Source of the DNA: Acidobacteriota bacterium | Lineage (GTDB): Bacteria; Acidobacteriota; UBA6911; RPQK01; JAJDTT01 | Reading direction: 5' to 3' | Assembly: GCA_965217775.1 (NCBI GenBank) | Contig: CBDCJH010000001.1 | Coordinates: 29,816-93,815 of the forward strand | DNA: 64,000 bases | Part shown: positions 24,515 through 51,128 of the stretch, piece after piece | Position numbering within the stretch: the stretch's first letter is position 1 | Layout: every line of letters begins with the position of its first letter | Program-made: the position numbers and the translations under genes | Notes under the pieces: model-generated | The model's input: the letters and a program-made list of their open reading frames with translations, nothing else | Told to the model about the DNA's origin: nothing | The model's database searches: none

Positions 24515-24569
24515 GCTGCCACCAATTTATTTCCGGCATTCGCTGGTCCTCGCCCCGGGGGGGACGTTC

Positions 24570-25616: not shown

Positions 25617-25670
25617 AATATTTCACGACGGCCTCTGGAGGCGAGTTCCACTAAACCGGGAAAACGATGC

Positions 25671-25696
25671 GTAGGGGCGGCCCTTGTGGCCGCCCG
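25671..25696 (+). repeat. REP-like hairpin, half element
   Basis: GTAGGGGCGGCC-CTTGT-GGCCGCCCG with a perfect 8-bp stem. Intergenic. Confidence 0.6.
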
Positions 25697-25732
25697 TTTC
25701 AACAGGTGGTATGCGAGGAGGCAACAACAGCG

Positions 25733-26776
25733 TCAGCCCACAGAAGCCACGGCCTCTCGAACCAGCCGCTTGAGGGTGGCCAGATCCTTACCGATGGACT
25801 CCAGAACCCGATCCCGGTCCATGGTGAGTCGACGGCTGCCACGCTCGGCGCCGCCGAGGGAGTATTCGCAGTGAAGGCTGATTGGACCTGCGAAACCCGA
25901 TTTCAGCAATAGGGCCAGAAAGGGACGGATGGGAACCATGCCCTCGCCCAGGGGACAGTTTTCCACCCGCCACCCCTCGGATGTTTCCTTCCATCTGAAG
26001 TCTTTCACCACCACGGTGTGGATTCGGTCGGCCAGAGCCCTGAAGTTGGTGGGCCAGGCGAGCCCCCCTTCCACGGTGGCGTGACGAATGTCGAACTGGC
26101 AACCGAGCCAGCGCCGGGGGAATCCCTCCAACGCTTGACGCAGGTCCCACAATGCCGCTCCAAAATGGGAAGCGCCGGCGTGGTTCTGATAGTCGCCGCA
26201 GATCTCGAACCTGCGATTTAGATCGGCCAAGCCGGCGAGATTTCTTCTGATCTGCGCCAGCGTCTCCGACATGTCCTTGTCTTCCGGGTAGCGATAGTAC
26301 CCCAGCCGATAGTAAGGGATCCCCAGTCCACTGGCGGTCTCCAGGATCTCCCGCGTGCCCGCTCCTTCCGGGTCGGTAATGGCCGTCGTTATCGTGGACA
26401 CGCGGACACCCGATTCCGCAACAGCCGACACGGCCCGGGGAAGATCCGTTGTCACCTTCCCGGGCAGAACATGCCCTGAAGGACGGACGGTGAGGTCGAC
26501 TCCGTCAAAGCCCAACTGGGACACGGCCACGCCCAATTCCGGGTAGTCCAGCCACTGCAGGTGCTTGGAGAAGATGCAGTACGTCCACTCGGGGACGGCG
26601 GGACTCCGGCCGCGAGCGAAAGGATTGCCTCGGACCGACTTCCCGGAGACCGCCAGAAGACCGGTTCCCAGGCCGGCAAGGAATTCCCGTCGTCCGGTTC
26701 GTTCAGTCTTAACTCGACCGCAGCTCATCGACGCCTCGCGTTCTTCATTTGGAGCACTACCATCTGGAAACACCAT
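25733..26776 (-). CDS. sugar phosphate isomerase/epimerase (xylose isomerase-like TIM barrel) with a Tat signal
   Basis: 347 aa. Twin-arginine motif TGRREFLAGLGTGLLAVSG, followed by TIM-barrel-like content. Confidence 0.65.
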   Translation of the reverse strand: MVFPDGSAPNEEREASMSCGRVKTERTGRREFLAGLGTGLLAVSGKSVRGNPFARGRSPAVPEWTYCIFSKHLQWLDYPELGVAVSQLGFDGVDLTVRPSGHVLPGKVTTDLPRAVSAVAESGVRVSTITTAITDPEGAGTREILETASGLGIPYYRLGYYRYPEDKDMSETLAQIRRNLAGLADLNRRFEICGDYQNHAGASHFGAALWDLRQALEGFPRRWLGCQFDIRHATVEGGLAWPTNFRALADRIHTVVVKDFRWKETSEGWRVENCPLGEGMVPIRPFLALLLKSGFAGPISLHCEYSLGGAERGSRRLTMDRDRVLESIGKDLATLKRLVREAVASVG

Positions 26777-26863
26777 GATAGGCTATCGGGCCATTTCGAC
26801 CGTTGCCGTCCGATTCTACACTGGACCGGCCGCGGACAAGGAAGGATTTCGACGGAGGAGAAC

Positions 26864-27559
26864 ATGTCCCTGCTTCAGACCTTGAACCGTCTCGTCGAAT
26901 ACGACACGGCATTGCTCGCCAACACCATCGGATACATCGATCCGTCTCCGCCTGAGGAGTTTTACATGTCGGGCGCCATTCAATCGGTCACCCCTTCCTT
27001 GGGACCCAGCGTCGGAGTGGCCGTCACCTGCAAGCTGGACAGCAGCACGCCGGGAAGGCAATCGGACCTGAGCGGGTTCTGGGAGATGGTGGACCGGATC
27101 GACAAGATGGAAGAGCCCGTGGTGTGGGTGTGCGAGGCGGTCGGCTCCAGGCCGGAACACGAGTGCGTGTTCGGCGACGGAATGGCCAAAGCGCTGCACA
27201 CTGCCGGTTGCAGCGCCCTCGTCACCAACGGCGGGGTCAGAGACATTCCCGGACTGATGAGCATTCCCTTCGCAGCCTATGCGCGAGGCCTCACCATCCA
27301 CCACTGCGCGCTGACGGTCTCGGGGGTGAACGAGCCGGTTCAGGTCGGCGGGATTCAGGTGACCCCGGGCGACGTCATCCACGCCAACAACGAGGGGGTC
27401 ATCAAGATCCCCGCGAGCTGCCTCCAGGTTCTGCCTGAGAAAGCGGGACAGATGCTCGTCTTCGAGAAGGAGGCGCACGAGATCATGCGCCGGCCCGATC
27501 TACCTCCTCTGGAGAAACCGAAACAGACCGCCCAACTGTTGAAGAAGTTCGGATTCTGA
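26864..27559 (+). CDS. RraA-family protein (RraA / HMG-CHA aldolase-like)
   Basis: Start ATG at 26864, preceded by GGAGGAG. Motifs VYDTALLANT-like, FGDGMAKALHTAGCSALVTNGGVRD and PGDVIHANNEGVIKIP. Confidence 0.75.
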   Translation: MSLLQTLNRLVEYDTALLANTIGYIDPSPPEEFYMSGAIQSVTPSLGPSVGVAVTCKLDSSTPGRQSDLSGFWEMVDRIDKMEEPVVWVCEAVGSRPEHECVFGDGMAKALHTAGCSALVTNGGVRDIPGLMSIPFAAYARGLTIHHCALTVSGVNEPVQVGGIQVTPGDVIHANNEGVIKIPASCLQVLPEKAGQMLVFEKEAHEIMRRPDLPPLEKPKQTAQLLKKFGF

Positions 27560-27605
27560 CGCGGCGAATATCGCCTGCCTGCGGCAGACGCCTCGAACGA
27601 CTCCA

Positions 27606-29252
27606 TCACAGATACCCCACCAGGCTCAGCGTGGTGACGATCGCCAGCAGGGTGAAGAAGGATCCGGCCAGGAACATTCCGATGCGCATGGGCCAGCCGG
27701 GGCGAAGTTCCGGGGGCAGCAGGATGACGTTGACGGCCAGCGTGTGGAAACAGCTCACGCCCAAAGCGTAATTGAAGATGTTGGTGGCGAACTTCAAGAG
27801 TTCCAGCGGCGGCGCCAATGAGAGCATGATGAGTCCGAACCCGGCGTAGCCGGCCAGCACCTTGAAATAGACGATCCGGATCCGGCTGGGTTCCAGCTTC
27901 CGCAGGCGTGCGCTGGAGGTCCAGAACACGTCCACCCACCGGCGGATCACTCCGTCCGCCGACGTCGCCATGGTCGGAGCCAGGACCAGAAAACCGCAGC
28001 ACATGGTGAGGTACCAGAAGAGCACGCCGGCATCCAGGCCCCAGGCCGCCCCCACGTGATCCCGTACGCCGGAGGCCGTCATGCCGGCTGCGACCCAGCT
28101 GCTGGCTTCCGTACCCCGGGGCAGAAACTGCACCGAGAGCATGCTGGGCAGGGCCAGGCCCAGGAAGCAGGCCGGCATCCAGACGGCCAATTGGTCGCGG
28201 GCAACATGCCGGTACCAGCGGCGAAATCTGCCCAGGGAGCTGCGCGTCACCTCGAAGACCATCCCCACGTGGGACAGGCTCAGGTTGTGCCCTCCGATGA
28301 CGCTGGGGATGGCTCCGACGTGACGCCCCATTCCCCAACCCTGATCCCTCGTGTAGTTGCTGATGGGAGCATTGGAGAGCCCCCCGCTGCCGGCGATGGC
28401 GGCGAATGCCGCCAAGAGGGAGATGGTGCTGAAATCGATCTCGGGCAGTGTACCCTTGTCCATCAGGGAGATGAAGATGTTCTCGGTCTCGGTTCCACCG
28501 ACGGGAACCGACCCGAACTTGAGGAAGCCGCTGAAGATCTCGAACCAGGTGGAGAGGCTGGAGTGGAAGATTCCCAGGATTGAGAGAAACCCCAGGACGA
28601 CCACGATCTTGAAGGTCATCACCGCCCGGAGCGAGTTGTAGATCTTGCCGCCGATCAGCAGCGGTATCAGGGCCGCCAGAAAAATCACGTAGCCCAGGAT
28701 CTTCAGGAGCCACCAGTGGGCATCGTTGTTGAGGGGGTCGGGAAGGACTCCTCCCAGCAGCACGGCGGCCAGAGGGGTGGCCGCATTGGCCGCCAGATAG
28801 GGAAAGACGGCTCCAAAATCCAGGAAAATGTAGGCGATAAGCCAGAACCTGGGTCCGGGCAGAGTCCGGAACTTGCCGGTGAAGATCGGTTCTCCCGTGT
28901 AGAGTGCGTACCGGCTGATCTCGATGTTGTAGAGAACCTGACTCATGATGCTCAGGGTGGCGAGCCACATGAGAGCGCCGCCGTACTTGGCCGTTACGGC
29001 CGGTCCCATCAGCCATTCGCCGCCGCCGATGGCGCCTCCTCCCAGGAGCAGGCCGGGACCCAGCAAGCCGAACCAGTTTCGAGTCGTGAAGACAGGCGCC
29101 TTCACCAGCTCACCGGTCTGCCACCGCGGCATCTCCTTGGAACCGGGATGGGGCGCCTGAAAGCCACGGCTTCCCGAGCCAGGAGATGAGTTTTCCGGTC
29201 TCGTGTCTTGCATTCCTGAAACCTTTCTGCTGGGGCTCCCGCTACGGGCCAT
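27606..29252 (-). CDS. Nramp-like polytopic membrane transporter
   Basis: 548 aa and strongly hydrophobic (10 or more predicted TM segments by eye). N-terminal GPGLLLGGGAIGGGEWLMGP resembles the Nramp signature. Confidence 0.55.
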   Translation of the reverse strand: MARSGSPSRKVSGMQDTRPENSSPGSGSRGFQAPHPGSKEMPRWQTGELVKAPVFTTRNWFGLLGPGLLLGGGAIGGGEWLMGPAVTAKYGGALMWLATLSIMSQVLYNIEISRYALYTGEPIFTGKFRTLPGPRFWLIAYIFLDFGAVFPYLAANAATPLAAVLLGGVLPDPLNNDAHWWLLKILGYVIFLAALIPLLIGGKIYNSLRAVMTFKIVVVLGFLSILGIFHSSLSTWFEIFSGFLKFGSVPVGGTETENIFISLMDKGTLPEIDFSTISLLAAFAAIAGSGGLSNAPISNYTRDQGWGMGRHVGAIPSVIGGHNLSLSHVGMVFEVTRSSLGRFRRWYRHVARDQLAVWMPACFLGLALPSMLSVQFLPRGTEASSWVAAGMTASGVRDHVGAAWGLDAGVLFWYLTMCCGFLVLAPTMATSADGVIRRWVDVFWTSSARLRKLEPSRIRIVYFKVLAGYAGFGLIMLSLAPPLELLKFATNIFNYALGVSCFHTLAVNVILLPPELRPGWPMRIGMFLAGSFFTLLAIVTTLSLVGYL

Positions 29253-29293
29253 TGAGGGCTGCTATGCTAGACTGCGCTCCGGAACTCCGCAAC

Positions 29294-30811
29294 ATGCAGG
29301 TCCTTTCCAAACCGGTACCGGCGAGTCCGATGGGGGCAGTGATTCTCCTGCTGTTGACGCTGGCGAACCTTACGGCAGCGCCGATCAAGGGCGTCGGCGA
29401 GCTCCCCGCGCAGGGCGAGATCCCGTCTCCGCCGGTGCCGGGACAGCCGGCGCGGGCGGATCTGGATCGAGCCATCACCCGGGGCACCCGATCCTTCATC
29501 CGGGACTTCGTCGAGCCCTCCTACGCCGCCATCTCCAACGGCGGCTACGTCGACTACAAGAACGCCGACGGCGCCGTCAAACGCTACGGACCCAAGGCCT
29601 ACGTGGCCTACCAGCTCTACCTGCTGACCCATTTCCTCATGTACTATCAGGACTTCGGCGTCGATCCGCAGAGCGAGCTCTTCCGGAAGGTCAGAACTTG
29701 GTTCGTGGAGGAATTCGATCGCCGGACCGGGAACTGGCTCTGGTCCCACGAGGGCTGCCTCCACGCCAAGGGAATGATCGCTCTGGCCAATCTGGGCCGT
29801 TCCTCCCTGGTGCGGAAGGGGTACGAATGGGCGCTCAGGTCGCCGCTCTCCCTGCCCTATCTGCCCCCCAGTTCCCTGCCGGTCGCCGACCGGGTCTTCA
29901 CCATCATGCAATCGGGCAACATCATCCAGACCCTGGGCAACGCCCGGAGTTCGCTCACCGGAAAGCACGGCTGGGAGCACGGCAGTCCGGTTCCCGACCT
30001 GGAGAACAGCGCCAAGCTCCTCTATGCCCTCTTGCAGGCCGGGTTCCCGTCCACGGACGCTCGCCTGACCGACCTCCGCCGGGGACTGGCGAACCGGCTT
30101 CTGGCCCTGGGTCCCCGCCTGATCGCAGCGGACTACGTGGGACTGGCCTGGTACGTCTTCCTGACCCACGACTTCGACCTGGAACCCGACCTGGCCTACC
30201 AGCGGTGTCTTCAGATTATGGAGGCGACCATCGACGGTGAATGGAAGTCGCATTTCGCCCTGATGGAATTTCCGGGCTTCCGCAGCCTCCTGGTGCGGGC
30301 GCTCATGACCGCCGGCAGGAGATCGCCTCAGGTGGATGCCGCCGTGAACGGGTACGTCGCGTCGCAAAGTGAAACTGGGGCCTGGCCGCTACCCCGCGCC
30401 CTCAGTCTATGGGGACTGGACAAGCCGCCGGTCGCCGGGATCAAACTGGGCACCATGGACGGCGCCAACACCTACCTGTTGACGCTGACGCTGATCCACT
30501 ACCGGGACAGGATCTCCAGTGACAACTCCGCGTTCGCCGTCCCGTCCCTTTCCCTGAAACACCGTCTCGCGCCGGCCGCCGTACGAGACGACTCTCCAGG
30601 AGCGAAGGCGGTGGAGCGGGCCTGTACCGGTTGCCATGCCCGGCCTCACCCCGATGCCTATGGCCGCGAGGATTGGCCGGGCGTCACCCGGAAAATGGAA
30701 GAGTACATGTTCGAGAAGGGGATGAACGTCGCTCCCCGGGATCTCACCCTGGTTCTCGACTACCTGATGGAGAAAGCTTCGTCCCGGTCGGGGACCAACG
30801 AGCCAAGGTGA
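29294..30811 (+). CDS. secreted hypothetical protein with a C-terminal c-type haem-binding motif
   Basis: Internal ATG at 29294 gives a signal peptide (MGAVILLLLTLANLTAAP). CxxCH motif ACTGCHARPHP near the C-terminus. The N-terminal ~400 aa were not recognised. Confidence 0.55.
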   Translation: MQVLSKPVPASPMGAVILLLLTLANLTAAPIKGVGELPAQGEIPSPPVPGQPARADLDRAITRGTRSFIRDFVEPSYAAISNGGYVDYKNADGAVKRYGPKAYVAYQLYLLTHFLMYYQDFGVDPQSELFRKVRTWFVEEFDRRTGNWLWSHEGCLHAKGMIALANLGRSSLVRKGYEWALRSPLSLPYLPPSSLPVADRVFTIMQSGNIIQTLGNARSSLTGKHGWEHGSPVPDLENSAKLLYALLQAGFPSTDARLTDLRRGLANRLLALGPRLIAADYVGLAWYVFLTHDFDLEPDLAYQRCLQIMEATIDGEWKSHFALMEFPGFRSLLVRALMTAGRRSPQVDAAVNGYVASQSETGAWPLPRALSLWGLDKPPVAGIKLGTMDGANTYLLTLTLIHYRDRISSDNSAFAVPSLSLKHRLAPAAVRDDSPGAKAVERACTGCHARPHPDAYGREDWPGVTRKMEEYMFEKGMNVAPRDLTLVLDYLMEKASSRSGTNEPR

Positions 30812-30952
30812 AGCGACATCAGTAGCCTGCGCCCTGCTACAGTTTCGAAGCCGGATAATCTGAGATTCCACCGACGCACCGCAGACGGACCGCTTTGGGC
30901 AGCGCCCCTCCCCCACTGCTGCGGGGCAAGAGGGGCGCCGTCCCGGTCTTCA

Positions 30953-32224
30953 TCATGACCGTCCCTGGACGCTCGTGGGCGCGCCCGGTCTCCCCGTAGG
31001 GACTCCGGCTCCGGCTTGCGAGCGTACGGGCCACCCGGAACGCGATTTTGTTGTTCCGGTTCGCGGTGGTGTTCCTGTTGCGGTTCGCGGAGCGCAGGTT
31101 CCTAGGGTTGTTGTTCCAGGAGCCGCCGCGCAAAACGCGCCGGGGGGACGGTCAGGCCTCCGGACGGGGCCGAAACGCACCGCCCGGAAGATCGCTTGGC
31201 GCAAGCGCCAGGTGTTCGCATGCTCGGCATGCGCGATCCAGGCGCGCACGTGCCGAGTCATCTGTTCCAGGTCCACCGTGCCCGCGTGCCAGCGGTCGCG
31301 CAGCCCCCGCAGGCGATTGCGGAACCGGCGCACGTTCGCTTCCGGCAATCGGCGGTAACCGCCCGGAAGTAGGACCAGGCCCAGGAACGGAGTCGGTTGA
31401 GCAGTTTCCAGCACCACCGTCTTGCGTGGGTGCAGCCGCAGGCGCCGGCCCTTGAGATACGTCGCGATTCGATTCCGCCAGTCCTCGAGCCGCCCGCGGT
31501 CGTCGTGAAACAGCGCGAAGTCGTCCACGTACCTGAGATATCCCTTCGCCCGCAGCACTTCCTTGCAGAAGTGGTCGAGACCGTTCAGATAGAGATTGGC
31601 GAAGAACTGGCTCGTCAGGTTGCCGATGGGCAAACCTCGCCGGCGTTCGAACGGGGTGAAGAGATTGTCGCCGGGATAGTAGAGGTTCACCGGTTCCTGC
31701 GGGTTGGACCCCTCGATGAGGCGTTCCGCTAACGCCAGGGTGCGCCGGCAGGCGATCCGCCGCCGCAGGTCCGCCTTGAGGATCTCGTGGTCGATGGCCG
31801 GGAAGTAGCGGTAGACGTCACAACGCAGCACCCAACGGTGCCGGTCGCGAAATCGTTCGTAGCGCGCGATGGCCCGGTGGGTTCCCTTGCCCTTCCGGTT
31901 GGCGTAGCTGTCGTGGATGAAGCCGCGTTCGAAGATGGGTTCCACCACGCGGCAGAAGGCATGGTGGACGACCCGGTCCCGAAAGGGCGCCGCCGAGACC
32001 ATGCGGCGTTTGGGGTCCCGGATCTCGATCACGGTGTAGCGTCCGGGACGGTAGCGCCCGCTCCTCAGTTCCCGCTCCAGGCGCAGAACCTGAGGCTCCA
32101 GATTGGCCAGGAACGACGCCACGCCCGGCTTGGCCCGTTTGCCCTTACAGGCGATCCGGGCCGCCTCCAGCAGGGCCGAAAACGAGGCGATCCGGTCAAA
32201 GAGGTCACGCGCTTTCGCGGGCAT
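30953..32224 (-). CDS. DGR-type reverse transcriptase; the annotated ORF reads through TR1
   Basis: 423-aa ORF with RT motifs, including the DGR-typical LPIGNLTSQFFANLYLNGLD and catalytic RYVDDFALF. After about residue 350 the ORF is just the open frame across TR1. Confidence 0.9.
   Translation of the reverse strand: MPAKARDLFDRIASFSALLEAARIACKGKRAKPGVASFLANLEPQVLRLERELRSGRYRPGRYTVIEIRDPKRRMVSAAPFRDRVVHHAFCRVVEPIFERGFIHDSYANRKGKGTHRAIARYERFRDRHRWVLRCDVYRYFPAIDHEILKADLRRRIACRRTLALAERLIEGSNPQEPVNLYYPGDNLFTPFERRRGLPIGNLTSQFFANLYLNGLDHFCKEVLRAKGYLRYVDDFALFHDDRGRLEDWRNRIATYLKGRRLRLHPRKTVVLETAQPTPFLGLVLLPGGYRRLPEANVRRFRNRLRGLRDRWHAGTVDLEQMTRHVRAWIAHAEHANTWRLRQAIFRAVRFGPVRRPDRPPGAFCAAAPGTTTLGTCAPRTATGTPPRTGTTKSRSGWPVRSQAGAGVPTGRPGAPTSVQGRS
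31032..31143 (-). other. DGR template repeat TR1
   Basis: Adenine/AAC-rich on the minus strand. In the VR frame it reads RGGSWNNNPRNLRSANRNRNTTANRNNKIAFRVAR. Aligns to VR 32696-32823 with mismatches mostly at TR adenines. Confidence 0.85.
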
Positions 32225-32600
32225 GATGCGCTTTCCGCCAGCCGCCGACCAGACGGCCGGTCTCGTCGAGTTGTCGGGCCGCGTGTTCGTAACGGCGCGG
32301 GTCCAGGTAACGCAGCTCGCGGGCCAGACGGCATAGGCACCGGAGCTTCTCCAGACCCAGGTTGGCGGCGGCCAGGGCGGGACCGCGGTGCCGGGTGTAG
32401 GTCGCCTCGATCAGCCGCTCCAGAACGTCCAGAGCCGAGGTCTGGATCCGGTCCCCCAGCAGAAACTTCTGCCGGCGCGGAAAGCGCTCCACCGTCGGGA
32501 TCAACCAGGCGAGGAATCGATAGTGCGACTCCAATGCGGGGCCAGTTTCACGCGAACGGTCGCCACTCCGGACACGCCGCCGCTGGGATTCATTCCTCAA
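32205..32600 (-). CDS. avd: DGR accessory variability determinant (Avd, four-helix-bundle family)
   Basis: 131 aa with a TTG start; a later TTG is also possible. YRFLAWLIPTVERFPRRQKFLLGDRI...LRCLCRLARELRYL...GRLVGGWRK matches the Avd pattern. Overlaps the RT start by 20 nt. Confidence 0.8.
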   Translation of the reverse strand: MRNESQRRRVRSGDRSRETGPALESHYRFLAWLIPTVERFPRRQKFLLGDRIQTSALDVLERLIEATYTRHRGPALAAANLGLEKLRCLCRLARELRYLDPRRYEHAARQLDETGRLVGGWRKAHHARESA

Positions 32601-32618
32601 ATTTGCCGATCAACCTCA

Positions 32619-32645
32619 AGAAAAAACCAGGGCGTTGCCCCCTGG
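32619..32645 (-). terminator. stem-loop plus T6 downstream of VR (intrinsic terminator and/or DGR target-recognition hairpin)
   Basis: The minus strand reads CCAGGG-GGCAACG-CCCTGG followed by TTTTTT. It lies about 50 nt 3' of VR and just upstream of avd. Confidence 0.55.
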
Positions 32646-32695
32646 CCCCCCGCAGGAGATAAAGATTTAAGGATTCAAGGGGTAACGGTCCGGGG

Positions 32696-32823
32696 CACCC
32701 GGAACGCGATTCCGAGGTCACCGAATTCACATGAGCCGGTTCGCGGAGGCGGACCCGCTGCGGTACGCGGAGCGCAGGAGCCCGGGGAAATTGCTCCGGG
32801 AGCCGCCGCGCAAAACGCGCCGG
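32696..32823 (-). other. DGR variable repeat (VR) at the 3' end of the target gene
   Basis: Collinear with TR1. By hand count about 18 of 22 substitutions are at TR adenines. VR carries a 16-nt insertion relative to TR1, and a TGA sits where TR1 has AAA. Confidence 0.8.
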
Positions 32824-33944
32824 GAACATTTCCCGCTCTCCCACGCCGAGCCGTTTGTCGGCGCTCCTTGGTAATTCTCGTTCCAACAATCCTGCACCCA
32901 CTCATACACGTTCCCGTGCATGTCGTGCAGGCCCCAGCCGTTGGGACCGAACGATCCCACCGGCGCCGTCTGTGCCTTGTCCCACTTACTCCCGCAGCCA
33001 ACACAGTTGGCCCGGTTGCGACCGATCCCGTTCCCCCAACTGTAGACCGTCTCCGTCCCCGCCCGAGACGCACCCCATCCGGAAGCTCCCCCCGGGGATC
33101 ACCACCATCTCCGGCCGAATCGGGTCCGCCTGGCTGCAGTCGTAAGTGCTGCTGCGGTCATAGGTGACCGACCTCTCGTTTTCTCCTCCCGGATCAAGGG
33201 TCCAAGTCCCGTCCCGTTTGTCCTCCACATACGACCCTTGTTCTACGATCTGCCCGTCATCGTTGCGCCTCACCCAGCGGCCGTGTTTCTTGCCTTCGAC
33301 GTAGGAGATTTCCCATGTGTCGCCGTCCGCGTCTCGGCCGGTCAGTTGGCCGTGTCTTTTGCCGTCTACGTACGGCCTTTTCTCTATGGATCCGTCTGGC
33401 CACCGAGCAGTCCAAAGGCCCTGCATATTGCCTTCCACGAAGGGTCCTTCTGTCTTGTTCCCGGACAGGTCACCGTCTGCTCCGGCAAGAGATATTCGTC
33501 CCACACGTGGCATCCCGGCTGGTTGGCCAGTTCCTTCCAACATTCGGAACCCTTCGCTTTGCCTGAGCAGGTCTGGACGGCATTGAACGTGTCCGCTTCG
33601 GCGGCGTTCAACAATTCCAGGGCTTCGATGTAGTGGTCCCCGTCGCGTCCAGCCATCTCCAAATAGCGCGTCACCATCTGGACCGCCCGGGCGGGACGGC
33701 CCGTCCGCTACGCCACTTGGGCACTTCGAAAATAGAATTCTTCCGGAAGCTTTAGACCCTGTTCCGTCTCTAACGTACTCATCTTGTCGAGCGCGGTTTG
33801 AGCACCAGCGAAGTCTTGCCGCTCGATCGCTTGCCGCGCGGAAAGTAGGTAGCGGTCCGCTTGGATCTCGGGTGGCAGCTGGGCGACCGTCGCGGGAGCG
33901 CCCAAGAATACGAAAACGACAACGCTCCGGATTCTTTTTTCCAT
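32727..33944 (-). pseudogene. DGR target: signal peptide + YwqK/MORN-like repeats + FGE-sulfatase (C-type lectin fold) domain; apparently disrupted
   Basis: The coding signal is split over track ORFs 33708-33944, 33384-33677, 32986-34017 (the latter's 3' half) and 32727-32960. There is an in-frame TAG at 33710-33708, a frame change near 33478, and a frame change plus missing domain core near 33055. Confidence 0.7.
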
Positions 33945-34080
33945 TGATTCTCTCCCGGTCTTCAGTGCATGCAGGTGAGGTGTGAATGCAGCCTATTCTA
34001 AAGGACCATCGGGCCATCTATCTTTTTGCTCCGCGGCAACCATTCTCCTGCTCCACTGATCGCTCTTCCCACCCTTCGCG

Positions 34081-35418
34081 TCACTTCACTAGGGCACCAA
34101 AAAGGTCCTCCAGATTTCGTGAGACGCCAAAGATGAATCGTAAGTCGTCAATCCCTTCGCCGTTGTTCAAATCAAATCCGAAGTGGATTCCTTTCAGATA
34201 GAGGCGAGACTCGATGTAGGTTCTCCATGGACGTTTCCGGGTAAAGTCCTTTTCCTCAATCATAGAAATAAGAGGGGGACCACGCCTCTTAGTTGGCATG
34301 GTGCGGCACTTTTGTATGTCTCTCGCACACTTCATTGCATTGGGTGTCAGCGGCGTTGCGATCTCATAGTTTTCAAACTTGCCGTAGGACACGTCCACGT
34401 AGAAGACCGGGGACCACGTGTTTCTCTTAGCCTTGTCCATGAGCGAGAATCGGCCTCCGAACGTGTAAGCAGAATAAATGTCATCTACATCCCAAATTCG
34501 AAGCGCCTTCTCACTACCCGTTATGCTTTGAAGGACGTACCTCCCAATAAAGCCACCCGACCACTGGTAGCGATCGTTTGATCCCAACGCTGCGACTGGG
34601 AAGTAGCGACCGACAACACCACCAAGGTGAATCGTCGCAGCTTTCTGTGACTGGATAAACGCACTCGAATCGAAGCCACCGCTGGCGTCCCCGGTGCTTG
34701 TCTTCACGCCAACCGAAGAAAGGCGAATGTTGACAATGGGATCAACGACGCATTCTCTTTCTGGGTCCACTATGGCTGGCATCAGGTCAAGCGCCATGTA
34801 CAGGTTCGCCTTAGTGAACGGTTCATTCGACCCCGCTTGAGCAGGGGCTTGAAGGTTCAACCTGTGCGTAGAGTTCGCCAGAACCACTCCAGCCGTGGCG
34901 TTCGCCCGCAGTAGACTTAGTACTGTTTTGTCGTCGGAATCACCTGCTGTGCCTTTGGCGTGTTCCGACCATGGGCCGCCGCCGCCTTCATTGTAAGCGC
35001 GAACCCGGTAGTGTTTCGTCGTACCGGCAAGGAGGTCGGTGTGGTGATACTTTGGTTTCTTGGGGTCAATGTCGTCGCATAGGATGATCCAGCCGGTGTT
35101 GCCGTCGTCGGAGACTTGGAGCGTGTAACCGGTGATCGTGGCATCTGCAGCCGGTTTGTTCCACGTCACCTCGATGCTACTGATTCCGGAGACCGCTTTC
35201 AGTCCACAGACTTTTTCTGGCTTTGGTGGGGAGGTCGTCTCCCCCGTGCCTGTCCCGAACCCGAGGACAGAGGCGTACATGAGGACGATGAGGAAGGCAA
35301 GAATATGACTGAGACGGGAGATAAATGAGAGCTTCTTACTCCTCCGCCACCCTCGCGGACCATTTGGCAGATTGGGCGGGATGTCGGGAGTGAGCCATCG
35401 GGCGGGTTCTTCTGACAC
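34081..35418 (-). CDS. membrane-anchored protein with a fibronectin type III domain and an unrecognised ~280-aa C-terminal domain
   Basis: 445 aa with TM ILAFLIVLMYASVLGF. FN3-like segment SIEVTWNKPAADATITGYTLQVSDDGNTGW...HYRVRAYNEGGGGPWS. Visibly lower GC than its flanks. Confidence 0.65.
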   Translation of the reverse strand: MSEEPARWLTPDIPPNLPNGPRGWRRSKKLSFISRLSHILAFLIVLMYASVLGFGTGTGETTSPPKPEKVCGLKAVSGISSIEVTWNKPAADATITGYTLQVSDDGNTGWIILCDDIDPKKPKYHHTDLLAGTTKHYRVRAYNEGGGGPWSEHAKGTAGDSDDKTVLSLLRANATAGVVLANSTHRLNLQAPAQAGSNEPFTKANLYMALDLMPAIVDPERECVVDPIVNIRLSSVGVKTSTGDASGGFDSSAFIQSQKAATIHLGGVVGRYFPVAALGSNDRYQWSGGFIGRYVLQSITGSEKALRIWDVDDIYSAYTFGGRFSLMDKAKRNTWSPVFYVDVSYGKFENYEIATPLTPNAMKCARDIQKCRTMPTKRRGPPLISMIEEKDFTRKRPWRTYIESRLYLKGIHFGFDLNNGEGIDDLRFIFGVSRNLEDLFGALVK

Positions 35419-36159
35419 TCTAACCTCCTTGAGGAAACCGTACCATTAGTTACCGTATCTATGACTTCGATCATGCCGAGTGAGTTGCTGAATTCAAGAT
35501 AAAGTGCCTTACAGGAAATAATCCCACATATCGTCATGCTCTAAGTTGGCCGCCACTTCTGTGCATATCTCAAGTGAACTTTCCCTGTAACTAAGGACGC
35601 AACTTTTTTTAAACGAGAATGCGGAATGTTACAACTTAGTACGTGCCTTTTTAGTCCCCATTTCTCATCACCGAAACGGAAGTCGGTGCGTTTAACGGCA
35701 TTTCAATGGTTTTCTTATTCATATGAATTCAAGTGCCGTCTTGCCGACTCGAATGTGGCGACAAAAGCCAAGATCGGGCGATGTCCAGAGGCATTTGACG
35801 TCCCACCTGCGTTCATGAGCCAGATTTCTCAAAGAGCCGACTCCAGCGCAGAGTCCGTCCGGCGCGGCGGACTCCCAAGGTGGCGTCTTCCCATTCGCTG
35901 TTTCCCGTCAACAGCGAACCTGGAGGGATTGCCCTCGCGCCAGAACCGATCACAAACACGAATTGCTAGCCCTGGTTTCACGAGCCGAAGCGGCTCCTGG
36001 CGGCTCACAAGTCTATCACCTGATGTTCAAATACCTATGACGTTTGGGAAACGAGAACCGGACAGTTTCCCCGAAAAAATTGAGGAGAGGCGCGATAGCC
36101 GTAGGTCCGAGGGAGTCGCTGTTGGCGGCGGCCTTCGCCGCTATGCTGGCGCCTCGATC

Positions 36160-36262
36160 TCCCTTCCTGCTTGCCGTGTAGCGGATCGTTCGTGGCGTCC
36201 ACGTTCAGGATCATGTACGCGGGCGGCGCTTGGTGCGCTTCCAGGAACACCTCCACCGGTCG
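36160..36262 (-). pseudogene. fragment resembling the N-terminal catalytic region of a DDE transposase (IS1380/IS4-superfamily-like)
   Basis: The minus-strand translation EVFLEAHQAPPAYMILNVDATNDPLHGKQEG resembles the LDxDxTxxxxHGxQEG block of such transposases. The similarity stops abruptly. Bounded by motif copies. Confidence 0.35.
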
Positions 36263-36501
36263 GAACCAGAGAGAAGGGGACAGTCACGTTTTCTGCATGC
36301 GATTCGCCAGGACCGAAAAGGGGACAGTCACATTCTCTGCTGTCGCTACTGGGGAGCTCCAGACTCGACTTCCACCGAGCCGCTCTTCGCCTGGAGACCC
36401 AAGAGGAGGATCGAAGCCCTATTGGCCGTTTCGACCTTGACCGAAGAGGAGAAGGAGACAGTCTATTTGTCGCGCGCCGTTGTCCTTGGTACGGTAGCGT
36501 A

Positions 36502-36945
36502 TCAGGTTAGTCCAGACGTAAACGATTGGGTGACCAGGCCCTTGGCCGCGTCTATCCCACCCTCCTTGATCAGGCGAGCAAGAATCTTTCCAAAAGTCTC
36601 GTCGGGTTGCTGGACGCCATCGGGAATGGAGTTGAGTAGCTTCAGCGCCTTCTCGGTCAACATGCAGCCGTTGACCTGTAGTCCTCCACGCTGGAGAGCC
36701 CGAACGTACTCATTCTCTACGAGCCAATCGATCGTCGAAAAGGCGATCCGCATCTGCTTCTGCTTCTCCTCGTCCACATCCTCTGAGTCGTCCTTGCGAG
36801 AGTAAAAGATGTCACCGTATCCTTTGGGGCGAGTGTCACCGCTGATTTCCCACGCCATAAGATCTTGTCTGACCGGAAAGTTCTCATAGAGGCGGCCCAA
36901 AATGATGGCGACGTATTCGTTGAACAGGTCGATGTTCTGCGTCAT
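36502..36945 (-). CDS. hypothetical protein
   Basis: 147-aa ORF with plausible composition (MTQNIDLFNEYVAIILGRLYENFP...). No family recognised. Lies between two motif copies. Confidence 0.5.
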   Translation of the reverse strand: MTQNIDLFNEYVAIILGRLYENFPVRQDLMAWEISGDTRPKGYGDIFYSRKDDSEDVDEEKQKQMRIAFSTIDWLVENEYVRALQRGGLQVNGCMLTEKALKLLNSIPDGVQQPDETFGKILARLIKEGGIDAAKGLVTQSFTSGLT

Positions 36946-37038
36946 GCGTCCTCCCCGTAATGGCTGAGTTGGAGCCGAAACTCCACTTTACGAGGTGTTC
37001 CCACTCGGAGAGAAGGGGACAGTCACGTTTTCTGCATG

Positions 37039-37275
37039 CGCGGCGAGGGCCAAGGCAGTGGCGCCCTCACCGTTCTGGGCGTCGATCCGGGCCCTGCGGT
37101 CCAGCAGCAATTCCGCGACTTCAGCATGACCGTTCGAGGCGGCTTGCATCAGGGGGGTCCGACCATCGTCGTCCCGAACATCCGGGTCCGCCCCCCGGTC
37201 CAGCAGCAGCTTGGCGATCTCCGGGAATCCCTGATACGCCGCGAAGGCGAGAGCCGTCTGGCCTCCCGCGCCTCG
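37039..37275 (-). pseudogene. ankyrin-repeat gene fragment, paralogous to 38767-39003
   Basis: 237 nt, collinear and about 90% identical by hand count to an internal part of the 627-aa ankyrin gene. Encodes GGQTALAFAAYQGFPEIAKLLLDRGADPDVRDDDGRTPLMQAASNGHAEVAELLLDR. Bounded on both sides by motif copies. Confidence 0.85.
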
Positions 37276-37541
37276 GGTTCCCACGGGACGCGAGAAGGGG
37301 ACAGTCTATTTTTCCCGCCCTCGGTTCCAACTGCGCCCACCACTGGACCCTTGCCTGCCAGGTCGATTATCTGGTCACGGACCCTCTACGCGAGAGGGGA
37401 CCAGATTAGGGACCGCTTGGAGAGGTTGGCGAGGGTGCCTTTCTTGACGTGGCTCTTAGGGCGGTAGGACTTGCTCAGGAGGGGCCGGAGAGAAGGGGGC
37501 AGTCACGTTTTCCGCCCCTCGTTCGATGTCAGGAGGATGGC

Positions 37542-37558
37542 GGGGGGGGGGGGGGGGG
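37542..37558 (+). repeat. homopolymeric G17 tract
   Basis: 17 consecutive G read directly from the sequence. Intergenic within the mosaic region. Confidence 0.9.
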
Positions 37559-37568
37559 CGCAGACCGG

Positions 37569-37790
37569 CTACTCCTGCTCCTGGAGCAATCTGGCCAGCG
37601 CAAGAAGGGGACAATCTATTTTTCCCATGATGACGTGTGAAACGTACCGTCTTCCCGCCAATACGCCAGCCCATGCGCCGACGGCCGCAGAGCCTATGGC
37701 GAGAAGGGCCTCATTCTCTTTCTCGTAGAATGCCAACAGCACGGAACCCAGCACAGATAGAACAATGGCCGTGCCCAGCGATATTGCCAC
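37569..37790 (-). CDS. small two-TM hypothetical ORF whose 3' end runs into a motif copy and an ankyrin 3'-end fragment
   Basis: 73 aa with a GTG start. MAISLGTAIVLSVLGSVLLAFY...LLAIGSAAVGAWAGVLAG. The last ~20 codons are encoded by motif copy 37602-37626 plus the LLQEQE-stop fragment. Confidence 0.35.
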   Translation of the reverse strand: MAISLGTAIVLSVLGSVLLAFYEKENEALLAIGSAAVGAWAGVLAGRRYVSHVIMGKIDCPLLALARLLQEQE

Positions 37791-37888
37791 GACTCGATAA
37801 AAGAACTGGTACGATTCATAGGTGGGGGGTGGAACCTATCGCAATTGCAGAATTCCCACTATCGCCCCAATCCTGGGGAGCGGGGGTT

Positions 37889-38110
37889 TCAGCCACCTCT
37901 CAGCCCCATAATGACAAGACGCTCCATCGAACCGTCCTTCTTGCGTCTGTACAATTCTCCACCGTCTTCGACCAACCTGGTCAGATCGTCCATCACCGAC
38001 AATGCGCTACTCACAGTTGATGCTTTGCTTCGCGAGTCCAATTTTTGCGTCAGCCTGTTGGTGATTTCGATATCGCGCTCGGTCAGATTCATGGTGACTT
38101 TTCGTAACAC
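37889..38110 (-). CDS. small ribbon-helix-helix-like hypothetical protein
   Basis: 73 aa. GTG start with AGGAGG 5 nt upstream. VTMNLTERDIEITNRLTQKLDSRSKASTVSSALSV fits a beta-alpha-alpha RHH pattern by eye. TTGACT-18 nt-TATATT lies upstream. Confidence 0.45.
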   Translation of the reverse strand: MLRKVTMNLTERDIEITNRLTQKLDSRSKASTVSSALSVMDDLTRLVEDGGELYRRKKDGSMERLVIMGLRGG

Positions 38111-38381
38111 GTGTGCCTCCTATGTGGTTGCAGATTCCAACCATGCTTCGTTCTGGATGCGCATTGTGCCGCCAAGTCGAGGGACGTCGAGAGGCCAACC
38201 CTGGATCCATCCACCTTTTCAGTCGATGCCAAAGCCCATTCAGCAGCATCTTCAACACTTAACGAGTACTAGAACACATACAGACAATGTATGGCGAATA
38301 TACAGATAAAGTATGGTCATAGTCAAGGTCAAGGGGGGTCGGAACAGGGGACAGTTCCCTTTTCACGAGGTGTGGGTCCGT

Positions 38382-38531
38382 TTTTGTTGTTCCGGTTCCC
38401 GGTGGTGTTCCTGTTGCGGTTCGCGGAGCGCAGGTTCCTGGGGTTGTTGTTCCAGGAGCCGCCGCGAAAAACGCGCTGGGGGGACGGTCAGGCCTCTGGA
38501 CGGGGCCGAAGTGCACCTCCCGGAAGATCGC
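38382..38531 (-). other. orphan second copy of the RT 3' end plus template repeat (TR2)
   Basis: About 150 nt collinear with 31046-31196 at roughly 93-95% identity. Encodes ...IFREVHFGPVQRPDRPP in the RT frame and RGGSWNNNPRNLRSANRNRNTTGNRNNK in the VR frame. There is no RT body upstream. Flanked by motif copies. Confidence 0.8.
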
Positions 38532-38619
38532 CTCGAGGGGACAGTCACGTTTTCCGCAGAGAGAAGGGAACCGCGCAGAGAGAAGGGAACCGGATTCGCG
38601 CGTGCGGCCCAGACGGCTT

Positions 38620-40503
38620 CTACTCCTGTTCCTGGAGTAATCTCGCCGTGACCTTTCGACCTTCGGCCTGAGCCAGCATGAGGGGATTGCTTCCCTGGTG
38701 GTTCCGGATACGCACGTCAGCGCCGCGGCTCAGCAACAGCCGGGCCAGGTCCGTCTGACCTCGGGACGCGGCGAGGGCCAAGGCAGTGGCGCCCTCTCCG
38801 TCCTGGGCATCGATCCGGGCCCCCCGGTCCAGTAGCAGTTCCGCCACTTCAGCATGACCGTTCCAGGCGGCTTGCATCAGTGGGGTCCGGCCGGAATCGT
38901 CTTGGACATCCGGGTCCGCCCCCCGGTCCAGCAGCAGCTTGGCGATCTCCGGAAATCCCTGATACGCCGCGAAGGTGAGGGCCGTCTGGCCCCCCGCGCC
39001 TCGCGCTCCGACACGAGCGCCGCGTTGCAACAGTTTCCGCACCGACTCGATTCGCCCCCTGTAGGCCGCCATGCCCAGAAAAGACTGGCCGCGGGGGGCG
39101 AGCGAATTCACGTCCACACCCGCCGCCAACAGGGCGTCGACGATGGGACCGCGGTCCTGGCTCAGCGCCAGCCCCAGGGCCGTCCAGCCCTCGTTGCTGC
39201 GAGAGTCGAGCCGGGCGCCGCCGTCGATGAGCCGCCGCGCCACTTCGGCGTGACCATGGAGGGCGGCGTAGATGAGCGGCGTCCTCCCCTCCCGGTCCGG
39301 CCGGTCCGGATCGGTCCCCCGGGCCAGCAGGACCTTGACCGTCGCCTCGTTTCCTTCCAACGCGGCGTGCACCAGAAGGGTTCGACCCGCCTCGTCGGGG
39401 GTATCGACCCGTTCCCCGGCCGGGAGCAGCGCTTCGATGACCTTCGTGTGGTCGTACCAGACGGCCAGGTCCAGAGCCGTCTGGCCCCGATTGGACTTGA
39501 TCTGCGGATCCGCGCCCGCCGCCAGAAGCGCCTTGACCGCATCCGCCTTCCCCTGGGAGGCGGCCTGCGTGAGAGGTGTCCGGCCTTGACTGTCGCGGCT
39601 GTCCACCACGGCCCCCGCCCGGATCAGAGCCTCGACGATGGGTGCAAAGCCATTGTAGGCCGCCGCCGCCAGTGGTCCGTTGCCCTCCTTGTCCCGAAAG
39701 CCGGTGGCGGCGCCGTGGGCCAGCAGGAATCGGGCCGCTTCGGTCTTCCCTCCCGACGCCGCATGCATCAGGAGCGGGATGCCGTTGACGTCCACCTCAT
39801 CGACGTCGGCTCCGTAGCGCACCAGGAGAGCAGCCGTTCGTCCGTGGCCCTCGAACAGGGCCAAGGCGAGAGCCGTCCAGTTGTCGCGGCTCCGAGTCCC
39901 GACCTTGGATCCTCCTTCGAGCAGAGCCTCGACCACAGGCAGGTCGCCCTGGGACGATGCCCGCATCAGGACGGTCCAGCCCGTCTTGTCTCGCGCGTCG
40001 GGTCCGGCCCCGGCCGCCAACAGTGTCCGGACCACCGCCACGCTCCCTCCCAGTACTCCCCAGACCAAGGGCGTATGTCCGCTGGCGTCGGTGGAGCGTA
40101 TGTCCGCTCCCACCTCCAGCAAGGCGCCAACGACAGCCACATGTCCGGATCCGGAACCGATCATCAGGGCGGTGGCGCCGTCCCGGGTTCTGGCTTCCAG
40201 TTCCGACCCCCGGGACAGGAGCAGGCGGACGGTCTGTTCATTCCCGCCCATGGCGGCGTACATGAGAGGATTCAATCCGTCCGGATCCCGAACCAACACG
40301 CTGGCGCCCCGGTCCAACAAGGCCGCGACCTGATCGGTGCGGCCCTCCACGGCGGCCCCGATCAGGGCCGCATTGAGCTCCTGATCCTGACCGGCGGCGG
40401 AGACGTTGGACGACAGAAGACCCAGAACCAACCACCGGGCGAGGAAGTCCCGGCCCCGCGGTTTCGGCCTTGGCCGCACTTGATATCCGGTGGCTCGGAA
40501 CAT
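38620..40503 (-). CDS. large secreted ankyrin-repeat protein
   Basis: 627 aa with an N-terminal signal/anchor (WLVLGLLSSNVSAAG), followed by about 18 ANK repeats. Confidence 0.9.
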   Translation of the reverse strand: MFRATGYQVRPRPKPRGRDFLARWLVLGLLSSNVSAAGQDQELNAALIGAAVEGRTDQVAALLDRGASVLVRDPDGLNPLMYAAMGGNEQTVRLLLSRGSELEARTRDGATALMIGSGSGHVAVVGALLEVGADIRSTDASGHTPLVWGVLGGSVAVVRTLLAAGAGPDARDKTGWTVLMRASSQGDLPVVEALLEGGSKVGTRSRDNWTALALALFEGHGRTAALLVRYGADVDEVDVNGIPLLMHAASGGKTEAARFLLAHGAATGFRDKEGNGPLAAAAYNGFAPIVEALIRAGAVVDSRDSQGRTPLTQAASQGKADAVKALLAAGADPQIKSNRGQTALDLAVWYDHTKVIEALLPAGERVDTPDEAGRTLLVHAALEGNEATVKVLLARGTDPDRPDREGRTPLIYAALHGHAEVARRLIDGGARLDSRSNEGWTALGLALSQDRGPIVDALLAAGVDVNSLAPRGQSFLGMAAYRGRIESVRKLLQRGARVGARGAGGQTALTFAAYQGFPEIAKLLLDRGADPDVQDDSGRTPLMQAAWNGHAEVAELLLDRGARIDAQDGEGATALALAASRGQTDLARLLLSRGADVRIRNHQGSNPLMLAQAEGRKVTARLLQEQE

Positions 40504-44247: not shown

Positions 44248-44328
44248 GTAGGGGCACCCCTTGTGTGGGTGCCCGCTTTCGCCTGCACGGATCGGCCCGG
44301 GGAGGGCGACCGCAAGGGTTGCCCCTAC
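44248..44328 (+). repeat. REP-like double-hairpin intergenic element (full copy)
   Basis: GTAGGGGCACCC-CTTGTGT-GGGTGCCCG ... GGGCGACC-GCAA-GGGTTGCCCCTAC. About 85% identical to 47984-48063. Confidence 0.8.
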
Positions 44329-44399
44329 TTGGGAAAGGTGCCGGTTCAGTTTTTTCTTAGTAAATCCATGAACTTGTGTTATTATCGCTGACTGTGCGG

Positions 44400-47983: not shown

Positions 47984-48063
47984 GTAGGGTCACCCCTTGT
48001 GGGTGCCCGCTTTCGCCCTTCACTGATCGGCCCGGGGAAGTCGACCACAAGGGTCGCCCCTAC
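47984..48063 (+). repeat. REP-like double-hairpin intergenic element (full copy)
   Basis: GTAGGGTCACCCCTTGTGGGTGCCCGCTTTCGCCC...GGCCCGGGGAAGTCGACCACAAGGGTCGCCCCTAC. Same family as 44248-44328. Confidence 0.8.
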
Positions 48064-48118
48064 GTTTTCCTCTTTGGTCCGTTTGACACCCGGAAATAGG
48101 GGTGACTATTCTCCCGTG

Positions 48119-51045: not shown

Positions 51046-51086
51046 TGTACTCGACTCGCCGGTAACCCGATCGGAGGATCGCGAAG

Positions 51087-51122: not shown

Positions 51123-51128
51123 TGCCGA

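Follow-up and report, generated by a model that had tools for sequence, protein, structure and literature searches.

A directional mosaic of gene fragments delimited by a short palindromic repeat in Acidobacteriota

The motif array and its units

The stretch of DNA analysed here (hereafter the window) comprises 64 kb of contig CBDCJH010000001.1 from an Acidobacteriota bacterium. Between a full-length ankyrin-repeat gene and a diversity-generating retroelement (DGR), it carries a 2.5-kb array in which a short repeat, always in the same orientation, alternates with pieces of foreign and neighbouring genes. The repeat marks the seams of this mosaic: full and partial copies change in number locally, and the segments between direct copies are gained, lost, and re-ordered from strain to strain. 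A directional mosaic with one delimiting motif had been noticed in a first-pass annotation of the sequence, and it was recovered here with nine plus-strand units and two partial copies.

The consensus of the repeat reads GAGAA-GGGGACAGTC-ACG-TTYTC on the plus strand, and the surrounding genes lie on the minus strand. A search with the 18-mer GGGGACAGTCACGTTTTC at up to three mismatches returned 8 matches in 64 kb, against 0.04 expected by chance, and seven of the eight were located on the plus strand within 36276-38554. A core search added variants at 36454 and 37607, giving nine units, named M9 to M1 from left to right and all on the plus strand, whose cores start at 36276, 36320, 36454, 37015, 37297, 37495, 37607, 38347, and 38537. 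The spacing from unit to unit is irregular, ranging from 44 to 852 nt, and together with the two partial copies the array extends over 36271-38592. The first-pass annotation had placed its beginning at 36058 (CGGACAGTTTCCCCG), where no motif copy was found; this sequence is part of a block conserved in relatives. Comparison of the left half GAGAAGGGGAC with the reverse complement of the right half GAAAACGTGAC gave matches at 8 of 11 positions around a central A, indicating that the unit is a 23-nt imperfect palindrome, GAGAAGGGGAC-A-GTCACGTTYTC.

Three sub-types alternate along the array, namely type A (..ACGTTTTC), type B (..TATTTTTCCC), and a single type C (..TTCCCTTTTC). The motif search retrieved M9 (36271-36293), which is of type A and whose 33-nt unit (36269-36301) is identical at 33 of 33 positions to that of M6 (37008-37040), as had been observed before. 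The same search yielded M8 (36315-36337; GAAAAGGGGACAGTCACATTCTC) and the type-B copy M5 (37292-37314; GAGAAGGGGACAGTCTATTTTTC), and the core search yielded M7 (36449-36471), a type-B variant reading GAGAAGGAGACAGTCTATTTGTC, and M3 (37602-37624), of type B. M6 (37010-37032) and M4 (37490-37512) belong to type A, the former being joined to prophage gpU sequence at a microhomology of 8-10 nt, CTTCTC(TC)CG, shared by the motif arm and gpU. M2 (38342-38364; AACAGGGGACAGTTCCCTTTTC) is the type-C copy and overlaps part of a pre-existing module sequence, and M1 (38532-38554), again from the motif search, has the left arm CTCGA in place of GAGAA. Two 19-nt tandem partial units on the plus strand (CGCAGAGAGAAGGGAACCG twice; 38555-38592) were recognised by sequence comparison. 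The window copies fold weakly (-0.4 to -4.3 kcal/mol; z from +1.16 to -1.99), M2 being the only one with a folding z below zero, and motif copies of other genomes fold well (-8.3 kcal/mol, z = -3.5).

Searches for the repeat in existing resources returned little. No Rfam family matched, either at gathering thresholds across the whole window or at E <= 5 over 35900-38700. A full-text literature search for the motif sequence retrieved unrelated eukaryotic primers only, plasmid and phage collections gave no match, and a scan of JGI metagenomes produced two short contigs only.

Segments between the motif copies

The segments between copies measure 11-713 nt, and sequence comparison identified a motif-free counterpart elsewhere for every one of them. 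The island around them (~33000-38500) has a GC content of 50-59%, compared with 65-70% in the flanks. One border of the array is formed by the full-length ankyrin-repeat gene (38620-40503, minus strand; Pfam Ank_2, E = 7e-148), which is the parent of two segments. Segment F (37039-37284, minus strand) is an internal ankyrin fragment with 90% identity to 38767-39012, and segment D (37533-37598, minus strand) consists of a run of 16 G residues (37533-37548) followed by sequence copied from around the ankyrin stop codon and from the flank beyond it, of which 37569-37596 is 89% identical to 38620-38647. Segment B (38379-38531, minus strand) is a copy of the 3' end of the DGR reverse transcriptase (RT) gene together with most of the template repeat (TR), and it shares 94% identity with its resident parent at 31043-31195 (minus strand).

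Segment G (36482-37011, minus strand) is a piece of a P2-like prophage tail operon with 91% identity to positions 9934-10458 of another locus (L030), where the counterpart sits between the GpU and Phage_tail_X genes. It contains the gpU 3' end, the whole of open reading frame (ORF) 147 (36502-36945), which matches phrog_2266, and the initial codons of tail X; the intactness of ORF147 is an accident of where the segment was cut. Segment C (37627-38332, minus strand) is a self-contained module with 81% identity to L036 3781-4513, a counterpart that lies in another genome in an unrelated context with no motif, and the homology stops within 10 nt of M3 and M2. The module comprises an AT-rich upstream region, ORF73 (37889-38110), which appears ribbon-helix-helix-like in its residue pattern as judged by eye, and a small hydrophobic (membrane) ORF (37569-37790) with a weak DUF202 match below cutoff (E = 0.0038). 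Homologues of ORF73, a widespread family, were also observed between rplI and transketolase in L037, L038, L040, and L042 (~2800-5700; 55-79% identical), and in four genomes one or two partial transketolase 3' copies (74-98% identical) and a RelE/helix-turn-helix (HTH) pair follow beyond the homologue.

The other segments are shorter or more diverged pieces, whose positions in three related strains (L028, L029, and L035, described below) are given where they match. Segment H (36366-36442, plus strand) is a 77-nt diverged fragment of a von Willebrand factor type A (VWA) gene, 72-75% identical to relatives (L035 4735-4811, L029 5900-5976, and L028 12752-12826); the gene behind it is present in relatives and not in the window. 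Segment E (37323-37487, minus strand) displays partial similarity to the 5' region of an insertion sequence (IS) transposase gene, with matches at L029 5216-5289, L028 12071-12150, and the IS at L028 17291-17324, and its counterpart in relatives is located directly downstream of a displaced ankyrin copy. Segment J (36038-36256, minus strand) is an internal fragment of a DDE transposase that covers profile positions 127-164 of 435 in PF13701, a match that is weak (E = 9.6e-6) and under the curated cutoff; J is absent in L028 and L029.

Several items of this inventory had been listed in the first-pass annotation, including the intact ORF at 36502-36945, the two small ORFs of segment C, and the copy of the RT 3' end plus TR. 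The transposase-like fragment gained a PF13701 match, albeit one below cutoff. Both the ankyrin piece and the copy of its stop region are present, and their lengths were corrected from 237 to 246 nt and from ~40 to 28 nt, respectively. In addition, the minus-strand ORFs 37569-37790 and 36988-37284 run through motif copies: the small membrane ORF reads through M3 and acquires the C-terminus ...GKIDCPLLALARLLQEQE, composed of the motif and the copied ankyrin stop region, and the ankyrin-fragment ORF ends with ...AENVTVPFS. Both are chimeric products of the mosaic that could be mis-annotated as genes, which is a warning for the annotation of such arrays.

Segment rearrangement among related strains

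A comparison of strains had been proposed together with the first-pass annotation. Three independent metagenome contigs from other samples (L028, L029, and L035) were found through look-ups with ORF147 and ORF73, and their flanks are 93-96% identical to the window. L035 is collinear with window 40819-37039 through M1, the TR copy, M2, C, M3, D, M4, E, M5, and F, and the arrangement M6-G-M7 is reproduced in L028 and L029; the junctions F/M6 and M7-H-M8-M9-J were seen only in the window. Since the array recurs in three other assemblies with break points at motifs, most of it is no assembly chimera, and the earlier proposal of a genuine array holds to that extent.

Entire segments distinguish the strains from one another, the breaks being located at motifs, and the segment ends differ between strains by tens of nucleotides. 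L029 is devoid of the TR segment and carries a hybrid site in its place, composed of the left part of M2, a T-run, and the right flank of M1, with the crossover in the T-run and not in the motif centre. Segments D, E, and F are missing from the window's position in L028 and L029, which instead harbour a contiguous 386-nt copy of the ankyrin 3' part followed by E-like sequence at the distal end of the array, behind ORF147 and an extra 184-aa gene. In L035, D-M4-E-M5 is followed by the full ankyrin copy, ORF147 is absent, and M4 is represented by three tandem 23-nt units. The displaced 386-nt copy is 85-90% identical to the gene's own 3' end in all three strains, and segment F of the window is part of it. 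ORF147 thus precedes the ankyrin copy in L029 and follows it in the window, and L035 does not have it, indicating that segment order differs between strains with the orientation kept. L035 carries one copy at the position of the two partial units, and in L028 and L029 this place is taken by a complete type-B unit together with 63 nt copied from the 3' end of the gene at 29186-30811.

The association of boundaries with the motif was evaluated by permutation, with 17.5% of the region falling within 15 nt of a unit as background. None of the five internal fragment boundaries is more than 15 nt away from a motif unit (p = 1.5e-4), which bears out the earlier claim that homology to the parent loci stops at the motifs, and the same holds for 8 of 9 strain-to-strain homology boundaries (p = 5e-6). 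In the overall tally, 12 of 13 homology boundaries are this close to a unit. Several junctions fall inside or beside the motif at no single fixed position.

A further rearrangement involves the resident DGR. This complete-looking element occupies 30953-34017 on the minus strand, with the RT gene at 30953-32224 (RVT_1) and bAvd at 32205-32600, and 13 of the 16 differences between its TR (31056-31144) and variable repeat (VR; 32736-32824) are at TR adenines. The target gene is apparently chimeric, given as two ORFs (32675-33073 and 32986-34017) that overlap out of frame; the 850-873-aa FGE-sulfatase target of relatives displays homology to the window only from ~33063 onward. In the Acidobacteriota metagenome-assembled genome (MAG) CATOST01, one locus (L011) is 94.5% identical to window 24562-31092 and matches it as far as the middle of TR (31092), after which it reads GAGAAGGGGAG, a type-A unit containing a 9-nt duplication, and three times (CACCGGATG); the unit is the same 33-nt one as in the window, accompanied by partial copies (L011 1-420, cf. 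window 31040-33125). L011 resumes inside the DGR target gene with 85% identity to 33062-33123. The RT, avd, and VR are deleted in this relative, with the motif at the seam within TR.

The first-pass annotation had suggested that the array might capture pieces of DNA or cDNA. Segment B differs from TR at 9 positions, none of which is among the 31 adenines, and the idea that it is a cDNA or retrohoming product of the DGR was rejected on this ratio of 0/9, compared with 13/16 for VR; the cDNA part of the suggestion is therefore not upheld.

Some observations on the related strains stand apart from the array. The run of 16 G residues in segment D reads GGGGGCGTGTGG in L035, and either a true expansion or a homopolymer or base-calling error may account for it. 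Adjoining a motif copy, L029 2030-2146 is a 117-nt AT-rich miniature inverted-repeat transposable element (MITE) with perfect 19-bp terminal inverted repeats (CTAGGAGGCTGTCCGAGAA), and at the corresponding position L028 shows only a duplicated GCTGGCACTGGTTYTCG, which may be the footprint of an excision. In L028 alone, an IS that encodes a 572-aa DDE_Tnp_1 transposase and seems to have CTTAAG on both sides lies at 17053-18995, between the DGR target gene and avd. The termini of the IS and of the MITE are unrelated to the motif, and the motif was accordingly rejected as an IS end.

The motif family in other genomes

Strand patterns given here refer to the fetched loci. The exact 18-mer was found at 27 loci in a species-representative genome set, most of them in ~7-8 related Acidobacteriota MAGs, several of which are complete chromosomes. 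These Acidobacteriota loci share a GAGAA/GAAAA left arm and have unrelated flanks, and the remaining matches look like chance or coding sequence. From the fetched loci, 80 distinct motif-like sequences were collected by a core search with up to one mismatch and an arm filter, a few of them being an unrelated GGGGACATTC hairpin, coding, or chance matches. In this set the bases beyond GAGAA...TTYTC are not conserved, and there is no constant flanking tetranucleotide. Both the exact motif and the 28-33-nt units of its sub-families reappear between unrelated flanking sequences in a number of related species, and the family is also represented in loci without a DGR.

Copies within one locus are nearly always on the same strand (5/0 in L013, 4/0 in L020, 4/0 in L027, and 5/0 over 12 kb in L031) and lie mainly in intergenic or gene-poor stretches; the relation of motif orientation to GC skew or coding strand was inconsistent and too noisy on 8-kb loci. 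As the first-pass annotation had asked, the motif is tied to fragment boundaries elsewhere too, bordering fragments and small modules in other genomes. A RelB/YafQ toxin-antitoxin pair is bracketed by double and triple motif copies in L013, and in L025 the 3' part of a beta-lactamase gene is duplicated in tandem as a perfect 745-nt repeat, with the end of the period at the motif. An integrase fragment is truncated at the motif in L026, two C-terminal fragments or 3' ends of OmpR-type response regulators, identified by eye, are bordered by it in L027, and both ends of a prophage remnant carry it in L031. An AlpA-type gene (PF12728; L032 2093-2338) lies ~40 nt from a motif at 2378, and in five genomes the motif stands behind a conserved pair of 142-aa and 682-aa genes, with unrelated DNA beyond it. 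The number of tandem and partial copies varies at orthologous loci (L004 vs L022 and L019 vs L024), and partial copies beside full ones break at motif positions 10-17, which correspond to the palindrome centre with its central GACAGTC.

Other repeats were recorded in the same genomes. A ~165-nt repeat at window 21935-22099 (plus strand) and 56165-56333 (minus strand), as well as at L028 2439-2607, L012 7767-7855, and L026 871-926, folds into a single long hairpin with almost perfect pairing (-118 kcal/mol, z = -11.6). It matched nothing in Rfam and probably represents a palindromic element of the MITE type. Three canonical GTAG-type repetitive extragenic palindromic (REP) sequences (44288-44347, 48023-48082, and 51082-51141; reverse complement GTAGGGGCGACCCTTGCGGTCGCCC) are unrelated to the 23-nt motif, with similar ones in L038 and L040. 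A second short hairpin repeat, GGGGACATTCTTGTCCCC(C), occurs in the same genome set as the motif (window 15552-15569, minus strand; L002 1457, L013 4889, L015 2594, and L020 7294) and may be a terminator or a second repeat family.

Proposed mechanism and alternative explanations

The tentatively favoured explanation, which falls a little short of probable, sees in the motif a REP-like repeat that has not been described before, is copied in trans, and serves as a break and recombination point. An enzyme encoded elsewhere would copy the repeat around the genome in trans; identical 23-33-nt units at independent junctions (M9, M6, and L011) and in several species suggest that the unit is copied and not merely retained. 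Copies would then pile up in one orientation between the ankyrin gene and the DGR, in an island that is dispensable, low in GC, and hypervariable, where breakage at the palindrome centre or polymerase slippage could create partial and tandem self-duplications. Where a motif end is joined to ectopic DNA, with microhomology short or absent, the motif-fragment junctions and the tandem duplications of the 3' parts of adjacent genes would result, and unequal or circular exchange between direct copies would delete, duplicate, or re-order the segments between them. The outcome would be a 'junkyard' of ankyrin, DGR, prophage, IS, VWA, and small-module fragments, similar to bacterial interspersed mosaic elements (BIMEs) and Neisseria intergenic mosaic elements (NIMEs), and this mosaic is probably not a functional cassette array. 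The explanation agrees with the recombination site considered in the first-pass annotation, in that strains differ in which segments they contain and in the order of these, and the breaks coincide with motifs. Serial partial duplication of 3' ends, proposed at the same time, finds parallels in the 745-nt duplication of L025 and the 386-nt ankyrin copy of L028, L029, and L035, and nested insertions of a tiny element alone leave the strain-to-strain segment order unexplained.

Several results weigh against a REP-like repeat copied in trans. No clean pair of filled and empty sites for a single-unit insertion was found, each new copy accompanying a rearrangement, and imperfect homology over 23-33 nt is borderline for exchange of the RecA type. 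Pfam searches over all likely window genes detected no recombinase or transposase gene in the 64 kb, and a regular-expression scan of the window and the ~0.4 Mb of fetched loci detected no HUH-Y1 pattern. Covariation in the outer 5-bp stem was no better than expected by chance under independence, and the hairpin idea was dropped on this result and the weak folding of the window copies. Moreover, the GGGGACAGTC motif is absent from the rplI-transketolase loci of L037, L038, L040, and L042, and transketolase 3' duplications lacking the motif suggest that part of the duplication process may be independent of it.

A dedicated cassette system is a possible, if rather unlikely, alternative. The motif would be the site of a trans-acting tyrosine recombinase or of an HUH single-strand transposase of the IS200/IS605 or REP-RAYT (REP-associated tyrosine transposase) kind, which would cut out, as a circle, any segment that two copies of the same orientation enclose and insert it again next to a further copy, so that directional arrays arise. 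The single orientation of each cluster over up to 12 kb and the conserved asymmetric imperfect palindrome, typical of protein-recognised sites, are consistent with such a system, as are the toxin-antitoxin pair between double and triple copies in L013 and the ORF147 segment occupying different slots across strains in the same orientation. Partial copies tend to break in the central GACAGTC, the expected place of a crossover, and the hybrid M2/M1 site of L029 is what excision of the TR segment should leave; yet this hybrid crosses in the T-run, M1 is without its left arm, and the junction position is variable. The segments are mostly arbitrary gene fragments whose ends shift by tens of nucleotides between strains, no cassette was found moved intact with both motifs to an unlinked locus, and no recombinase, transposase, or HUH gene adjoins the arrays examined, nor is there a recombinase in the window. 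In a related and likewise unlikely version, the palindrome would be the site of an unrecognised, trans-encoded system of DNA capture and shuffling that resembles integrons or pdif modules in function, with another site and enzyme and no requirement for whole genes. Such a system, unlikely as it is, would sample prophage, transposon, retroelement, toxin-antitoxin, and neighbouring chromosomal DNA into directional arrays.

Passive instability alone, in which an immobile palindrome stalls replication and template switching copies nearby sequence together with the motif into the region, appears distinctly doubtful. It would account for the tandem 19-23-nt and 745-nt duplications that terminate at the motif, for the stutter-like filler of L011 (partial, full, and partial motif, then a 9-nt repeat three times), and for pieces with sources within 8 kb, such as the ankyrin gene, TR, and the 3' end of the gene at 29186-30811. 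It leaves unexplained the identical 23-33-nt units with unrelated flanks across loci and species; the prophage tail, module C, and VWA counterparts were found only in other genomes, and the window copies fold weakly and lack stem covariation. Decayed tandem accretion of phage-like integrative elements or small islands at a multi-copy att site is very improbable, although the 386-nt ankyrin copy at the distal array end resembles a displaced target 3' end, which would mark the far end of an insertion. The prophage-derived ORF147 within the array, the AlpA-type gene near the motif in L032, and the conserved locus followed by motif and variable DNA in five genomes point the same way, and the L026 integrase fragment abuts the motif, but it is truncated there and no intact integrase-bearing element bounded by motifs was seen. 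What appear to be dozens of sites per genome, tiny segments of 11-713 nt, and local chromosomal and DGR pieces between copies do not fit an att site. An artefact of short-repeat assembly or a by-product of cDNA synthesis by the neighbouring RT can be considered extremely improbable. Assemblers can be misled by short repeats, the G16 run could be a base-calling artefact, and an active-looking DGR is 4 kb away from the array, which holds a copy of the RT end and TR. Nevertheless, L035 is collinear, M6-G-M7 recurs in L028 and L029, these contigs stem from three other samples, and the duplicated pieces have diverged by 4-10% from their parents, unlike a chimera; for the DGR, the absence of adenine differences in the TR copy (0/9) and the presence of the motif in DGR-less loci speak against its involvement.

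If a REP-like repeat of this kind is confirmed, short palindromic repeats would gain a new family, from a soil phylum that is little studied and for the most part uncultured, and the strain comparison would directly show such a repeat as the seam of nearly all rearrangements in a hypervariable island. The rearrangements at the motif include the loss of a whole DGR in one relative (L011). The system would offer a testable handle on the way in which REP-like repeats bring about gene-fragment duplication, pseudogene 'junkyards', and the exchange of small modules, and on the enzyme by which such repeats are moved or cut; a dedicated enzyme, should there be one, would define a new cassette-type recombination system.

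Comparison with known systems

The first-pass annotation knew of no described element with this structure, and tests for integron attC sites, CRISPR, GTAG/CGTC REPs, pdif, and a DGR product were all negative. A CRISPR array was rejected on the irregular repeat-spacer period, the spacer-less tandem repeats, and the lack of cas genes among the window genes in Pfam searches. The motif has no GTAG/GTGG or CGTC tag when compared with published REP tables (PMC3733652), and it differs in sequence from the CnGA-footed Solibacter structures of class-3 TnpA-Y1 (PMC3733652; PMC6006769 Table S1). The Neisseria repeat dRS3 has been classed as CGTC-1 (PMC3733652). As judged by inspection, parS, matS, the LexA box, sigma-54 and extracytoplasmic function (ECF) promoters, DNA uptake sequences, and tRNA-derived att cores were rejected on sequence, and inspection against the dif consensus found no dif-like AT-rich centre.

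Among site-specific systems, integron arrays and clusters of attC sites lacking an integrase (CALINs), such as the 'VCR' attC arrays of Vibrio, also combine a one-orientation repeat with unrelated segments, including toxin-antitoxin pairs, and a strain-variable content. However, the motif is 23 nt long (28-33 nt in sub-families), in contrast to the 57-141 nt of attC, and has no RYYYAAC/GTTRRRY cores; neither intI nor attI is present in the 64-kb window, junctions occur at no fixed position, and the segments are mostly truncated gene fragments instead of whole promoterless ORFs. Acinetobacter plasmid pdif sites (XerC/D) similarly have two arms and a central region within ~28 nt and delimit small, often toxin-antitoxin modules in a mosaic, in their case between replicons. 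They alternate in orientation and match dif, whereas the motif copies are all direct and the arrays are chromosomal and rich in fragments. IS200/IS605 elements and palindrome-associated transposable elements (PATEs) place same-orientation subterminal hairpins around arbitrary DNA, and their circular intermediates would explain re-ordering; Helitron/IS91 rolling-circle elements are known to accumulate gene fragments. No Y1/Y2 HUH gene of either kind was found in the fetched loci and the window, and, unlike IS200/IS605, the motif has no distinct left and right ends, being one type with sub-variants, and no conserved cleavage tetranucleotide.

The closest likeness is to mosaic repeats. NIMEs are arrays of short heterogeneous blocks in variable intergenic regions, each bounded by a ~20-nt palindromic dRS3 repeat, which is also a target for mobile DNA. 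The present array shares the short mixed blocks bounded by a palindromic repeat of about this length and the variable intergenic setting, but the NIME blocks are repeat families of 50-150 bp, while those here are fragments of neighbouring genes, prophage, and IS, and dRS3 is a perfect-arm inverted repeat of unrelated sequence from another phylum. REPs and BIMEs are likewise short (20-40 nt) imperfect palindromes with many mostly intergenic, clustered copies in unrelated flanks, a lineage-specific sequence with sub-families, and a tendency to be sites of duplication and rearrangement; as with REPs mobilised by the Y1 transposase RAYT, the enzyme, if any, would be encoded elsewhere. They differ in forming inverted pairs, where the motif copies are in direct orientation, and in their GC-rich stem, where the motif is conserved at the palindrome centre, and no RAYT was found in the fetched loci and the window. 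The repeat family described here is real, reproducible, and undescribed, and its direct-orientation arrays that join fragments are an unusual architecture, which is best filed beside the mosaic repeats of the REP, BIME, and NIME type and not as a member of those families.

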